Origin: Escherichia phage V18
Direction: 5' to 3' (one strand)
DNA length: 64,000 nt
Sequence record: NC_041937.1
Positions 40,565 to 50,458 of the stretch are shown in pieces. The position numbers were made by a program, and so were the translations under genes. Below the pieces are notes generated by a model. The model made no database searches and had not been told where the DNA came from. It worked only from the letters and a program-made list of their open reading frames with translations. Every line of letters begins with the position of its first letter. Within the stretch, counting starts at the first letter, position 1.

Positions 40565-40780
40565 ATGATTGGAGACCGAAATGACACAATGACACTAGAG
40601 TTAACAATTCCAGACAGCTTTTCAGAAAACTTTATCCCAGAAATGATGAGTAAGATGCGATCATTGCTTGATCAGATTGAGGAGGCTGTTTGGGAAGACG
40701 ATGCTGTAGTGGCTAACGAGCTGGTAGATAAGTGTAAAAGTATTATTGATGCAGTTGAAGAATACCACGGAGGTTTTTAA
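40565..40780 (+). CDS. hypothetical small acidic protein
   Basis: 71 aa ORF coupled to next gene. Confidence 0.35.
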   Translation: MIGDRNDTMTLELTIPDSFSENFIPEMMSKMRSLLDQIEEAVWEDDAVVANELVDKCKSIIDAVEEYHGGF

Positions 40781-41394
40781 TGGATATTATTGTTCTTAAC
40801 GCCCCACCCAGCAGTGGTAAGGATCACATTGCAGATCTCTTGTTGGAAGCTATTCCTAACTCACACCACCGTGAGGTTAAGGAAATGCTCTTCAGTGTGG
40901 CAATTAAGGCAGCTGGTGTAACTCCTCAACTCTGGAATGCACTTTATGACCGCCACTACAAAGAAGAGCCTTGCCCTTTCTTAATGATAGACGGCAAGCA
41001 TGTTTCTCCGCGAGAATGGATGATCCATTGTAGTGAAAATCTGATTAAACCTATCTTTGGTGAAGATGCTTTCGGTAAAGCCGCAGTCGCATCTTTGAAG
41101 AAAGATTTCCCTGAAGGTAAAGGGGTTATTGTTTACTCCGATGGGGGATTCAAAGAGGAGCTGGCATGCCTTAGCGAGTACGCATACAGCACAGGTGGAG
41201 ATCTGTTGTTGTTCCGTATTCACCGTGTAGGATATGACTGGGGAAATGATTCCAGAACCTATCTAAGTCTGGAAAAGAACGGAATAAAAGGGGTTGAGTT
41301 TGATGTTGTAAACCCTGAAGGTGCACCTTGGGAGTGTGCATCGGAGATTGTGTGCAAGTATATTGATGTTAAAGAGGCCCAAGAAGAATGTTAA
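40780..41394 (+). CDS. P-loop nucleotide kinase (dNMP kinase-like)
   Basis: IIVLNAPPSSGKDHIADLL resembles T4 dNMP kinase Walker A region. Confidence 0.5.
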   Translation: MDIIVLNAPPSSGKDHIADLLLEAIPNSHHREVKEMLFSVAIKAAGVTPQLWNALYDRHYKEEPCPFLMIDGKHVSPREWMIHCSENLIKPIFGEDAFGKAAVASLKKDFPEGKGVIVYSDGGFKEELACLSEYAYSTGGDLLLFRIHRVGYDWGNDSRTYLSLEKNGIKGVEFDVVNPEGAPWECASEIVCKYIDVKEAQEEC

Positions 41395-41981
41395 TCGGAA
41401 TTGATGTAGATCTGACACTGGTAGATTCAGGAACAGCATGGTGGGAGTGGTTGGAGCGTTTGTATGGTCCAGCCAGTAAGACAGTAGCTAAACCTTCTAA
41501 TGGGCTAATGTATTACGATCTGTCAAAGTATTGGCCTGATCGTCCCAAAGAAAACATCATAGGACCTTTTGATTTCTGGAGTGATCCGTTCCTCTACGAC
41601 TTCCTTAAGCCTGAAGAGGGGGCTATTGAGGTTATGAAAGATTTGGTGGCTCGTGGTCACAAGCTTGCATTTATCTCGGTATGCAAGAAAGGTCACCTTG
41701 CATCTAAATCAAGGTTCTTAAAGCGTTGGACCAGTGATTTTATGGATCTGGACGACCACACCCAGGGCCACGGCTTCTACGCCACACATTTCAAAGGGAA
41801 TGTGGCTGTAGATGTTATAATTGACGACAGGCATGAATACCTGAACCAATTCGCTTCACGACCTGAAGTTATTAAAATCCTAAAAGATACGCCTTATGAG
41901 CAATTCGAGGAGTTAAAGGTCAGTGTTGACTATACCGCTAATAGCTGGTATAAAATAGGAAAATTTTTAGAAGGTATTTGA
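41388..41981 (+). CDS. HAD-superfamily phosphatase (5'-deoxynucleotidase-like)
   Basis: IGIDVDLTLVDS (HAD motif I DxDxT), later VIIDDR acidic motif. Confidence 0.55.
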   Translation: MLIGIDVDLTLVDSGTAWWEWLERLYGPASKTVAKPSNGLMYYDLSKYWPDRPKENIIGPFDFWSDPFLYDFLKPEEGAIEVMKDLVARGHKLAFISVCKKGHLASKSRFLKRWTSDFMDLDDHTQGHGFYATHFKGNVAVDVIIDDRHEYLNQFASRPEVIKILKDTPYEQFEELKVSVDYTANSWYKIGKFLEGI

Positions 41982-41982
41982 A

Positions 41983-42183
41983 ATGGGCAGATGTTCTAAA
42001 GGTGGCGATCCTGTAGTCAGATATGGTGACTGGCTAGAGGTGTATGATCTAGAAGGTAAGCTAGTGTATGCCTCTAGGATCACCCAAGATATGTGCTCTG
42101 ACATGTTCAACAGATACCTTGCATTTAAGGCCAACATAAACCCAGACGAAATTTCCAAAATTAAAACAAGGAGAGCTAAATAA
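41983..42183 (+). CDS. hypothetical small protein
   Basis: 66 aa ORF coupled to thyX. Confidence 0.35.
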   Translation: MGRCSKGGDPVVRYGDWLEVYDLEGKLVYASRITQDMCSDMFNRYLAFKANINPDEISKIKTRRAK

Positions 42184-47410: not shown

Positions 47411-47689
47411 ATGAGCTGCGAAAAATCTTTTTTCATCATCATTTACGGTAAGGATAACTGCCCACACTGTGTCAGAGCAAAAGAATTTGCAATCAGCAAA
47501 GGTCTGCCTTTTGTATATAAGACACTTGGCGATGGCTACACAAAAGAAGAGCTTATTGAGAAGTGTAGTCCAATTGTCCCCAGAACGTTGCCGCAGATCT
47601 TCTTAGAAAGCGATCTTGACAGTATCCATATAGGCGGTGCCGACGATTTCATCTCTTTTGTTAAGAATGGTTTTGGAGAGAAAAAGTGA
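47411..47689 (+). CDS. glutaredoxin/thioredoxin-like protein
   Basis: 92 aa; redox motif YGKDNCPHCVRAK (CPHC). Confidence 0.65.
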   Translation: MSCEKSFFIIIYGKDNCPHCVRAKEFAISKGLPFVYKTLGDGYTKEELIEKCSPIVPRTLPQIFLESDLDSIHIGGADDFISFVKNGFGEKK

Positions 47690-49808
47690 AAGTTGTAAAA
47701 CGGGACGGTAGAGAAGAGTTCTATAACGGAATTAAGGTGATCAAGGCGGCAGAGTCCGCCTTACTTGAGTCTGGACATACTGAAGAAGAAGCTTACCGGA
47801 TCGCCTGCGCGGTTAATGAAGTTGTTGCTAACAATCTACCAACCGACCAGTGCACGATCTCTGTAAAAAATATCCATATCCTTGTTGAAGATGCTCTTAT
47901 GGATATGGGTTTAAAATGTGCAGCCAGAGAATACATCCAGTATAGACAGACAAGAGATAATAACAGAGAGGCAGGTGGAAAACTGCTTGCAGATATTAGT
48001 GGCTTCTTGGATCGAACTTGTGATGAATTTACAAAAGAAAACGCAAATAAGCCCACTAATCATGTACACACTCATCGTGACCTGCTTGCAGGCATCCTTA
48101 GCAAACACCTTGCATCAACACAGATCCTGCCAGACCGTGTTTCAGAAGAGCACAATAAAGGCTTCATCCATGTGCATGATCTTGACTACTTGATCAGTCC
48201 GTTAACAAACTGTTGTTTGGTAAATTATCCAGATATGTTGGAAAACGGATTCAACATTGGCAACGCCCATGTCAGTAAGCCGAAGTCAATAGGGGTTGCA
48301 ACAACAATCCTTAGCCAAATCTCTAGTGCGGTAGCTAGTGCTCAATATGGTGGTCAGACTATGAGCCATATTGATCATTATCTGGCACAGTATGCTGAAG
48401 CGACCTATGAGAAGAACCTTAAATTTTGCCAGGAACATTGGTTGCCAGATGCTGAGACTGTTGCAATGCAAATGACAGATAAAGACGTGTTTGACAGCAT
48501 GCAGACGTTGCTTTATCAGATCAACACACTAACCTCGGTAAACGGTAACCCCTTTTATCACATTAAGTTTAGGTTTGGACACTTCGGTCTTTGGTAGAAT
48601 GATTACCAAAAACTACCTGAAAGTCCACAAAATGGGTCTTGGTGAAGAACGTATTACACCTGTGTTCCCTAAAGTGCTGTTCTTCCTAGAAGAGGGTGTC
48701 AACATGAACCCTGGGGATCCTAACTACGATTTGAAACGATTAGCTCTGGAATGCTGTGCAGAACGTATCTACCTGACTTCGTATCTGTACCACTAAATAG
48801 AAAAGTGACAGGCTCGACAGATGGCAAAGTAACGAGCATGGGATATGTAGAAGTTTCTTATCGAAATATAGCGACCCTGTAACAGGCGAGGAGAAATACC
48901 TTGGCAGATTTAACTTAGGCGTTGTTAGCCTTAACCTGCCAATGATTGCGGCAAAAGCTAAGACGGAAGGTGTTGATTTCTTTGCAGTTCTTGACGAATA
49001 CTTGGATCTTGCATACGAGGCTCACCTTGTAAGGGTTAATCGTCTAAAAGGAACAAAGGCGGGGCAGAACCCCATCATGTGGTGTGAAGGCGCTCTTGCT
49101 CGCCTGGATCCCGAAGAGAGTATTGATAAACTCTTCTATGACGGGTACGCTTCCATCAGTATTGGGTATATCGGTGTGTATGAAACCTGTCAGATTTTGG
49201 GTAGAGAAGGCGACAAGGCTTTAGCTCTTGGAATCCTTCAGCACATGAGAGATGCTTGTGAGCGATACAAGAAGGAAAGTAGACTAGCATTTAGCTTGTA
49301 CGGCACTCCTTCTGAGAGTCTATGCTATAAAGCTGCAACCTGTCTGGATCGTGAATATCCGGAAGTGTTGAAGCACGAGCATGAATATCTCACCAACAGT
49401 TTCCATCAGCCAGTATGGATAAATAGCTCTCCTTTTGATAAGTGGGAGTATGAGGAAGGTTTTGCTATGATCTCCTCTGGTGGCAACATCGGATACGTAG
49501 AGACACCTAACCTGAAAAACAACCTGGATGCTTTAGAGGCCCTTGTTGACTTCGGGTATAAACACATTATGTATTTTGGTATTAACCAACCTGTAGATAA
49601 ATGTCTCAAGTGTGGTTTCTCTGGTGAGTTCAGTGCAACAGCTAAAGGCTTTGTATGCCCAGAGTGTGGAAACCATGAAGAGGGAACGATCAGTGTAATT
49701 CGACGTGTGTCTGGATACCTTTCCAGTCCTAACTCCCGTCCTTACAATAAAGGTAAGCAAGCGGAAGTTATCGAGCGAGTTAAGCACTACGGAAGTTGTG
49801 GTTGCTGA
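47686..49808 (+). CDS. nrdD: anaerobic ribonucleoside-triphosphate reductase, interrupted by three frame changes
   Basis: N-terminal ATP-cone; segments resembling E. coli NrdD (ERIYPDF...KVTGS, CRSFL, RFNLGVVSLNLPMIA, glycyl-radical RVSGYL, CxxC zinc ribbon) lie in frames 1, 2, 1 and 0. Confidence 0.7.
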
Positions 49809-49871
49809 TTCTTGACAAAAGCCACAAGGATGTGGCATATTATTGACACACAGTGAGCTAGGAGGTGCAGT

Positions 49872-49985
49872 ATGTCATCAGGTATTTATAAAATTTGCAA
49901 GTGTGGTTGTCGTTGCAATCTTCGTTGGTGCAAGGCACTAGACGATTTTATTTGGCATTGCCCTAAATGTGATGCGGAGTATCTA
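49872..49985 (+). CDS. small Cys-rich zinc-ribbon protein (37 aa)
   Basis: MSSGIYKICKCGCRCNLRWCKALDDFIWHCPKCDAEYL; AGGAGG RBS; stop overlaps nrdG start. Confidence 0.3.
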
Positions 49986-50458
49986 TGAACATTGTCGGAT
50001 ACACAGAAATATCTTACACCGAAGGGCCAGGTATTAGAACTGCCTTGTGGGTATCTGGGTGCCCACACGCTTGCCCTGGTTGCTTTAATCAGGCATTTTG
50101 GTCAAAAGATAAGGGGAGGGAGTTCACTGAAGAAGATTTGCAAAAAATCTTGTCAGATTTAGATAACCTGTCTGTGTGCGGTATCTCTCTGCTGGGTGGA
50201 GAACCCTTAGCATACTATAATGAGCCAGATATTATTAGCCTGATGGAGAAAATTAAGGAAAAATTTGGTGACAAGAAAACTATTCTTGTATATACTGGGT
50301 TCACATTTGACCATATCTCTAGTGATGTTCTTAAACTGGCTGATATCATCATTGACGGTAAGTATGTAAAAGATTTACCAACCAAGAAACCGTTCCGAGG
50401 CAGCGATAACCAAAGAATGTTTAAAAAAGTAGCAGGCGGTTGGGTTCAGGTAGACTAG
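49985..50458 (+). CDS. nrdG: anaerobic ribonucleotide reductase activating protein (radical SAM)
   Basis: Cys cluster GCPHACPGC near N-terminus; 157 aa; adjacent to nrdD. Confidence 0.75.
   Translation: MNIVGYTEISYTEGPGIRTALWVSGCPHACPGCFNQAFWSKDKGREFTEEDLQKILSDLDNLSVCGISLLGGEPLAYYNEPDIISLMEKIKEKFGDKKTILVYTGFTFDHISSDVLKLADIIIDGKYVKDLPTKKPFRGSDNQRMFKKVAGGWVQVD

Follow-up and report, generated by a model that had tools for sequence, protein, structure and literature searches.

The stretch of Escherichia phage V18 DNA analysed here (64,000 nucleotides of NC_041937.1, hereafter the window) holds a dense block of nucleotide-metabolism genes at 40780–50458, in which the gene for the catalytic subunit of the anaerobic ribonucleotide reductase (RNR), nrdD, is broken while that for its activase, nrdG, is whole. 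This raises the question whether the phage has lost anaerobic deoxynucleotide synthesis or whether the deposited sequence is at fault. The ORFs of the block all lie on the + strand, as do all features given below, at the coordinates reported in a preliminary description of the window. Profile searches agreed with the eight family assignments made there (dNMP-kinase-like, NT5C/HAD, ThyX-family, NrdA, NrdB, glutaredoxin, NrdD and NrdG). The clustering within 10 kb, claimed in the same description, was borne out as well, as the ORFs keep this order across more than 110 deposited Vequintavirus genomes. Using window positions 40000–52000 as query, 114 phage records covered at least 80% of the region, nearly all at 95–99% identity, and the clustering of the eight genes is therefore not due to chance. 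Judging from these sequence comparisons, the window is that of an rV5-like Vequintavirus and 40780–50458 is its conserved nucleotide-precursor module. The block, also annotated in relatives, is already known. It was reported for rV5 in 2013, with gp106 as thymidylate synthase and gp109–112 and gp117 as RNR subunits (Kropinski et al. 2013, PMC3606486), and annotations of rV5-like genomes have included it from then on.

The module opens with a 204-aa dNMP-kinase-like P-loop protein (40780..41394) that matched PHROG 139 'deoxynucleoside monophosphate kinase' (E 3.7e-44), is 100% identical to its rV5_ev147 counterpart and, on reading the sequence, contains an SGKD P-loop. Pfam and NCBIfam profile searches returned no match for this protein. 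As phmmer searches of the kinase-like and ThyX-like proteins against PDB sequences were also empty, structure prediction followed by Foldseek was applied to both. The AlphaFold model of the kinase-like protein (pLDDT 90) had phage T4 dNMP kinase, 1DEK, as its best PDB match (E 5e-6, TMq 0.61). The modelled fold and the PHROG 139 membership together point to a dNMP kinase of the T4 gp1 type. It is followed by a 197-aa HAD-type 5'(3')-deoxyribonucleotidase of the NT5C family (41388..41981; PHROG 420) that scored 27.1 bits against PF06941 (cut-off 24.8; E 4.4e-6) and in which DVDLT at residues 6–10 reads as HAD motif I (DxDxT), so that profile score and motif both assign it to NT5C at the sequence level. 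A conserved 66-aa ORF (41983..42183; phrog_4903, E 3.5e-35), annotated as a gene in relatives, precedes the 327-aa ThyX-like protein (42183..43166). The latter matched PHROG 85 (E 5e-113) and Pfam Thy1 (38.1 bits, cut-off 24.8, over profile positions 60–191 only), and scored 39.5 bits against the NCBIfam thyX equivalog TIGR02170, below the cut-off of 87.9. All of the top 50 Foldseek matches of its model (pLDDT 80.6) were ThyX/FDTS or PolB UMP/dUMP methylase entries (E ~5e-6, TMt ~0.5). Its dUMP-binding motif is THR-x7-S-x-R as compared to RHR-x7-S-x-R, with T-H-R, S and R invariant across 32 homologues. Based on profiles and model, the flavin-dependent thymidylate synthase-like assignment thus holds at the level of family and fold only. 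Two conserved ORFs of 166 aa (43226..43726; phrog_5557, E 8e-75; no Pfam match) and 76 aa (43737..43967; phrog_5488, E 7.6e-42) complete this part of the block.

The aerobic reductase is encoded next. NrdA, the class Ia alpha subunit (771 aa, 43964..46279), matched Pfam Ribonuc_red_lgC (E 3.5e-100) and lgN, scored 500 bits against TIGR02506 (cut-off 341) and ends in CESCAL, which supplies the Cys pair of the C-terminal tail. The beta subunit NrdB (362 aa, 46319..47407) scored 105 bits against Pfam Ribonuc_red_sm (cut-off 33.6), and its top NCBIfam match was the class Ia beta family (E 4e-44), at 151 bits under the cut-off of 346. By these sequence matches the pair is assigned to class Ia. A 92-aa glutaredoxin with a CPHC active site (47411..47689; Pfam Glutaredoxin 34.5 bits, cut-off 22.9; GrxA family as top NCBIfam match) separates them from nrdD. 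Downstream of nrdD lie a conserved 39-aa ORF (49869..49988; phrog_20137, E 3.7e-31), annotated in BASEL phages, and the 157-aa radical-SAM activase NrdG (49985..50458). NrdG scored 148.5 bits against TIGR02491 (cut-off 126.1), matched Pfam Fer4_12 (E 4.6e-42) and Radical_SAM and holds the cluster motif CPHACPGC (CxxxCxxC) at residues 26–33; the equivalog score and the radical-SAM cluster argue for a class III activase.

Roles within the module were deduced from family membership. NrdAB, reduced by the phage glutaredoxin, would make dNDPs with oxygen present, and NrdD, activated by NrdG, would make dNTPs anaerobically. The ThyX-family enzyme may provide dTMP without ThyA, the gp1-like kinase would phosphorylate dNMPs and the NT5C nucleotidase would trim dNMP pools. 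These roles, in part already proposed for the block, are backed at the family level, with the reservation given above for ThyX.

In the window, nrdD (47686..49808) is spread over three ORFs (47686–48597, 48575–48796 and 48942–49808) that match PF13597 positions 1–166, 170–237 and 289–562. Class III reductases have one continuous reading frame after introns are taken out. Compared with the intact 707-aa rV5_ev147 gene, that of the window carries three frameshifting indels and does not conform. The first (48546..48547) is the loss of 2 nt, the CA of the Gln codon in NGQTPF, the second (48771..48772) the loss of a single T, and the third (48844..48845) a gain of 2 nt between MG and CRSF of the catalytic Cys motif. 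Undoing the three indels restored a stop-free 707-aa NrdD with 3 aa differences from that of rV5_ev147 despite ~55 nt differences. The repaired protein matched PF13597 (NRDD, 1.4e-160), PF01228 (Gly_radical, 2.9e-23) and PF03477 (ATP-cone, 1.3e-12) and shows the RVSGY glycyl-radical motif, the MGCRSF catalytic Cys and the C-terminal Zn-ribbon cysteines. Since the repaired product lacks stops and differs by so few amino acids given the nucleotide divergence, purifying selection acted on the gene up to the appearance of the lesions.

The positions of the lesions are informative. The −2 and +2 indels match, to the nucleotide, the insertion sites of intron 1 and intron 2, probable group I introns, in the nrdD of relatives; lesion 2 is away from known intron sites. 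Removal of the inserts at these boundaries in navn, AlexBoehm and slur16 gave in-frame, full-length NrdD, and the AlexBoehm coding sequence is deposited as a join. Both inserts matched Rfam Intron_gpI in a 1.4-kb search (E 2e-5 and 5.5e-7; 30.1 and 35.3 bits), detected under an E-value threshold only, as these scores are below the gathering score of 50. At gathering thresholds, Rfam returned no intron in the window or in loci L003 and L005, and three tRNAs were all that was found in the window. The insert boundaries, with GGT preceding the 5' splice site and G as the last base, fit the group I rule (U before the 5' splice site, G as last intron base). Intron 2 of navn, for instance, is 762 nt long, carries an HNH ORF, is preceded by ATGGGT and ends in G ahead of TGTAGAAG. 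The intron ORFs in the nrdD of relatives are HNH/I-HmuI-like endonucleases.

The exon sequences that flank the two sites are of the intron-bearing type. Around intron site 1 a mostly synonymous recoded tract (48489..48585) gathers mismatches to rV5_ev147 at 48489–48583, and from 48480 on the window equals the exon flanks of the intron-bearing phage nom, save for the 2-nt lesion. Downstream of intron site 2 a second recoded tract (48845..48880) is 100% identical, from the start of exon 3, to intron-bearing navn, phita32 and C2. The window thereby shares recoded flanks and both sites with the intron-split genes of navn, phita32, nom, AlexBoehm and slur16; unlike these it contains no intron sequence, and its two junctions deviate by −2 and +2 nt. 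Querying the window by BLAST with the introns of the relatives detected no displaced remnants of them. Among the phage matches listed, no record joins either recoded tract to an uninterrupted junction. A search of IMG/VR for precise intronless nrdD alleles with recoded flanks gave none, where the positive control gave just one intron-bearing rV5-like contig, so that this negative carries little weight.

Damage is not confined to nrdD. At least 14 of the ~85 genes in the window are frameshifted or partly deleted, including those for TerL, the major capsid protein, scaffold, decoration protein, tape measure and tail completion. In 57 kb of the window ~17 frame-breaking small indels were counted, in addition to deletions in essential genes, and the 1-nt indels mostly shorten G/C runs. 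Five deletions lie in the capsid module, the last four separated by islands of 34–94 nt, and were present in none of more than 100 relatives. The terL frameshift, too, coincides with a group I intron site that is already known. The exon flanks of terL are of the intronless type, so that it is not obvious how one scenario would account for all three intron sites. As lesions in capsid, scaffold and tape-measure genes are lethal, the sequence as it stands is not one that a viable phage could have. A decaying prophage-like remnant was considered for the window and rejected, given that its proteins are 97–100% identical to those of lytic relatives with nearly all substitutions synonymous. The same indel rate bears on nrdG. 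It was correctly noted earlier that nrdD is damaged and the 474-nt nrdG undamaged, but the contrast drawn between them is biologically uninformative because the rate of the window predicts a gene of that length to be intact ~87% of the time.

Because the window as a whole is similarly damaged and unviable, the nrdD lesions are best read as an artefact, and because two of the three sit exactly at these nrdD intron sites, introns mishandled during sequencing or assembly, as opposed to a loss of anaerobic dNTP synthesis, are their most likely origin as judged from sequence. We consider it likely overall that the module is a conserved rV5-like block whose nrdD frameshifts stem from sequencing or assembly and not from biology. 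The procedure would have dropped both introns and left their junctions garbled, at −2 and +2 nt; an ordinary 1-nt error would then account for lesion 2, and the same procedure may have left homopolymer indels and collapsed gaps throughout the window. The exact −2/+2 junction strings could not be derived from microhomology-mediated deletion, cryptic splice sites or simple read-overhang, mapping or assembly models, none of which fits cleanly. Simple base-calling errors, with introns irrelevant, would agree with the ~17 other small indels, mostly G/C-run contractions, and with the −1 at 48771 away from intron sites. We regard this explanation of all three indels as highly improbable, as an indel in a 2.1-kb gene would fall within 2 nt of a specified site with a chance of ~0.002, and two would both do so with one of ~1e-5, a third intron-site indel occurs in terL, and neither the loss of CA nor the gain of 2 nt is a homopolymer error.

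True inactivation of nrdD is biologically feasible, since the gene is dispensable in aerobic culture in T4. An ancestor could have lost its two introns imprecisely, or cuts by their endonucleases could have been misrepaired, leaving 2-nt scars and an inactive anaerobic RNR in a phage grown in air. The location of the lesions precisely at both sites, the intron-type flanks and the HNH/I-HmuI-like nature of the intron ORFs are all consistent with such pseudogenisation. A spontaneous deletion, however, has no reason to respect the splice boundaries of two introns within 2 nt, and the terL intron-site frameshift and the lethal capsid, scaffold and tape-measure lesions lie in the same window. The gene moreover carries no nonsense codon or excess of amino-acid changes, and the junction sequences, searched as exact 24–28-mers, were absent from IMG/VR, from metagenome contigs (junction 1) and from genome contigs (junction 2). 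Looking up the exact proteins, both NrdD fragments and NrdG, likewise returned no match. Real pseudogenisation is on balance unlikely. It is quite unlikely that the −2/+2 junctions genuinely record either an inexact removal of two group I introns or the repair of endonuclease cuts; if they did, they would be a natural case of intron or homing-endonuclease activity inactivating a phage anaerobic ribonucleotide reductase. That nrdD is still expressed across the frame changes, whether by programmed frameshifting or in the form of several polypeptides that interact, is hardly credible. Every fragment does still match the NRDD profile, but the original frame runs into a stop at 48597, the shifts fall within NGQTPF and MGCRSF, both conserved core motifs, the sequence shows no evident slippery-site logic and more than 100 relatives read through in one frame after intron removal.

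If the damage is an artefact of mishandled introns, nrdD in the source phage is most probably whole and, as in navn and phita32, probably split by two group I introns that the deposited sequence hides. The window should be treated as draft-quality sequence, and no biological meaning should be read into its apparent pseudogenes, which include nrdD, terL and the capsid genes.

Among large virulent coliphages the module itself is a textbook feature, of little biological weight. In genes, gene order and nucleotide identity (95–99%) it is like that of rV5 and the more than 110 Vequintavirus genomes, and its proteins are 97–100% identical to those of rV5_ev147; none of these relatives has the three nrdD indels. 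Phage T4 has the same set of enzymes for aerobic and anaerobic dNTP supply (nrdA/B, nrdD/G, the gene 1 dNMP kinase and td), and T4 gp1 shares the kinase fold of the 204-aa protein, with 1DEK ranking first in Foldseek. In T4, thymidylate synthase is the ThyA-type Td, whereas a ThyX-family enzyme is found in the window, and the dNTP genes of the window, unlike those of T4, are gathered in a single 10-kb block. nrdD is described as a habitual target of group I introns (PMC1865063). T4 nrdD carries a mobile group I intron and the Vequintavirus nrdD sites are likewise intron targets; they differ from T4 in that the nrdD intron endonucleases in relatives of the window are HNH/I-HmuI-like.

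The window copy of nrdD measures 2123 nt, against 2124 nt for the intact gene of the Vequintavirus relative rV5_ev147, which encodes 707 aa, and is distinguished from it by three frame-changing indels on the + strand. Between 48546 and 48547 this copy lacks 2 nt, the CA of the NGQTPF Gln codon, and between 48771 and 48772 a further single nucleotide; at 48844–48845, within the MG/CRSF motif bearing the catalytic cysteine, it has two nucleotides too many. Each remaining ORF still matches the corresponding portion of the NRDD profile, and undoing the three indels resulted in a stop-free 707-aa NrdD with 3 residue differences from rV5_ev147. 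As about 55 nucleotide differences separate the two genes, this shows nrdD to be without sign of neutral decay. In the annotations of the BASEL collection phages JohannBauhin and AlexBoehm, nrdD starts 213 nt 3' of a GTG overlapping the glutaredoxin stop codon (window 47686–47898; 8287–8499 in locus L002). The longer ORF from this GTG encodes an ATP-cone domain (Pfam 1.3e-12), and the two annotations therefore probably drop the allosteric domain of NrdD.

Precisely at the first lesion site, an ORF-less insert of 257 nt is found in nom, AlexBoehm and navn and a longer one with an HNH ORF in slur16 (797 nt) and phita32. Precisely at the third lesion site, navn and phita32 have an insert of 762 nt that contains an HNH/I-HmuI-like ORF. 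Cutting the inserts out after ...GGT and after G restored an in-frame full-length NrdD in navn, AlexBoehm and slur16, and the AlexBoehm CDS is deposited as a join. The two navn inserts matched Rfam Intron_gpI with E values of 2e-5 and 5.5e-7, both under the gathering score. Two distinct putative group I introns, ORF-less or with HNH/I-HmuI-like endonuclease ORFs, are present in nrdD of the relatives (1682–1938 and 2239–3000 in locus L006, 2148–2944 in L005, and in L010); ORF-less and navn-type introns are each accompanied by a recoded exon tract of about 35–60 nt on one or both sides. Both intron sites of the window are bordered by densely recoded tracts, with mostly synonymous changes, which match the exon flanks of intron-bearing alleles exactly and differ from intronless alleles. 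Neither tract was joined to an uninterrupted junction in any of the phage-collection records examined. Judged by its sequence, window nrdD looks like a two-intron allele stripped of both introns, each within 2 nt of the splice boundaries.

Gene integrity across the window was surveyed by projecting 85 rV5_ev147 proteins onto it, and 14 genes were found frameshifted or partly missing. These encode a 334-aa tail protein, the tape measure, the tail completion protein, the prohead-protease inhibitor (frameshift at 17909), the major capsid protein (62 aa lost), the decoration protein (almost absent), the scaffold (truncated), the large terminase, two hypothetical proteins, a homing endonuclease, an N6-adenine methyltransferase, a PhoH-like protein and NrdD. 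Proteins of the window are 97–100% identical to those of living relatives, and its 1-nt indels mostly contract short G/C runs. Window-specific indels at 7910–7974, 11561, 15502, 29598, 34610, 39690 and 51252, again mostly contractions of G/C runs, split the genes for a tail protein, the tape measure, the tail completion protein, a 305-aa hypothetical protein, a homing endonuclease, an N6-adenine methyltransferase and a PhoH-like ATPase. The capsid module (17400–19800, - strand) is about 1.1 kb shorter than in every relative, through five deletions of about 186, 350, 366, 82 and 116 nt with islands of 34–94 nt between the last four, an arrangement shared by none of more than 100 relatives. In terL (- strand, 22990–23015) one nucleotide lost from a GGG run causes a frameshift precisely where a group I intron is inserted in rV5/V5, whose terL introns have been described (PMC3606486). 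The terL flanks are of the intronless type, and a 9-nt tandem duplication (GGTTTGCTT twice), present in the window only, lies 12 nt upstream of the frameshift.

Further differences from rV5_ev147 were observed. Only three tRNAs (Met, Thr, Arg) were detected at 24600–24950 (- strand) against six or seven in the relative, about 400 nt with tRNA-Ser and tRNA-Tyr being missing at 24817/24818, and the 5' end of tRNA-Met has a 1-nt deletion at 24693 (Rfam alignment 51 bits, four mismatched pairs). At 27354, close to the - to + strand gene switch, 21 nt are deleted, corresponding to one copy of an intergenic GTCCGT.../ACGGAC inverted-repeat unit; GC skew changes sign at about 28–30 kb. An 8-nt tandem duplication (ATGACACA/ATGACACT) at 40584–40591, absent from rV5_ev147, lies near the start of a conserved 71-aa ORF (40565–40780, phrog_7393).

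A phage with these lesions could neither package its DNA nor build a capsid. Lethal lesions together with intron-site junctions make an artefact the most likely source of the nrdD damage, and we infer that the lesions are most probably products of sequencing, assembly or consensus-building, and that the real phage has an undamaged nrdD, likely with introns. Imprecise loss of the introns in nature, or scarring by an endonuclease, might be tolerated, nrdD being dispensable in air, but would leave the lethal lesions elsewhere unexplained, and we consider this unlikely. Spontaneous deletion is moreover disfavoured as it has no reason to respect splice boundaries, and four are respected. They would be respected by a procedure that followed an intronless template, or by one that breaks at related intron repeats; nrdD intron 2 and the V5 terL intron are 78% identical over 80 nt in their 3' cores. 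Microhomology-mediated deletion, cryptic splice sites and simple read-overhang models each failed to account cleanly for the exact nrdD junction strings. Purely random errors in nrdD are less probable still, given that three lesions at intron sites would go unexplained, and programmed frameshifting or a split NrdD enzyme, for which nothing speaks, can practically be set aside.

The nrdD 'damage' is accordingly best treated as not real. The preliminary description set a damaged nrdD against an intact nrdG, and both are indeed present in the sequence. However, frame-breaking indels number about 17 in about 57 kb, a rate at which a gene of 474 nt would remain undamaged in about 87% of cases. That nrdG is intact next to a damaged nrdD of 2.1 kb is biologically uninformative.

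The remainder of that description, a nucleotide-metabolism block at 40780–50458, held up: ORFs were placed on the + strand at the coordinates proposed, and the profile searches run, together with fold evidence, backed each family assignment. NrdA, NrdB, glutaredoxin and NrdG each gave unambiguous matches. The dNMP-kinase-like protein (40780–41394, + strand) had no match in Pfam, NCBIfam or PDB sequence searches; it matched PHROG 139 'deoxynucleoside monophosphate kinase' (E 3.7e-44), and its AlphaFold model (pLDDT 90) had T4 dNMP kinase 1DEK as best PDB match. The nucleotidase (41388–41981, + strand) scored barely over the Pfam NT5C cut-off and has a DVDLT HAD motif. The product of 42183–43166 (+ strand) is a ThyX-family protein, matching Pfam Thy1 over cut-off with a partial profile only and PHROG 85 at 5e-113, with an NCBIfam thyX equivalog score below cut-off. 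All of the top 50 PDB matches to its model (pLDDT 80.6) were ThyX/FDTS or the related PolB methylase. It belongs to a big family of phage proteins of 320–345 aa in which a THR-x7-S-x-R motif is invariant, and we infer dTMP-synthase activity for it. Four small conserved PHROG ORFs of unknown function lie inside the block.

Megablast against deposited phage genomes retrieved 120 records with 47400–50500 as query and 146 with 40000–52000, almost all Escherichia Vequintavirus (rV5-like) myophages at 95–99% identity; in 114 records one single match spanned 80% or more of the 12 kb queried. Gene content and order are the same in the annotated rV5_ev147 and JohannBauhin regions. The module has previously been described and annotated, the rV5 genome paper giving aerobic and anaerobic RNR subunits and thymidylate synthase as nucleotide-metabolism genes (PMC3606486), and the nrdD introns of Vequintavirus are already in public annotation; neither is novel. 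In T4 the counterpart of this rV5 module is the set of dNTP-synthesis genes, with Td in the place of the ThyX-family enzyme.
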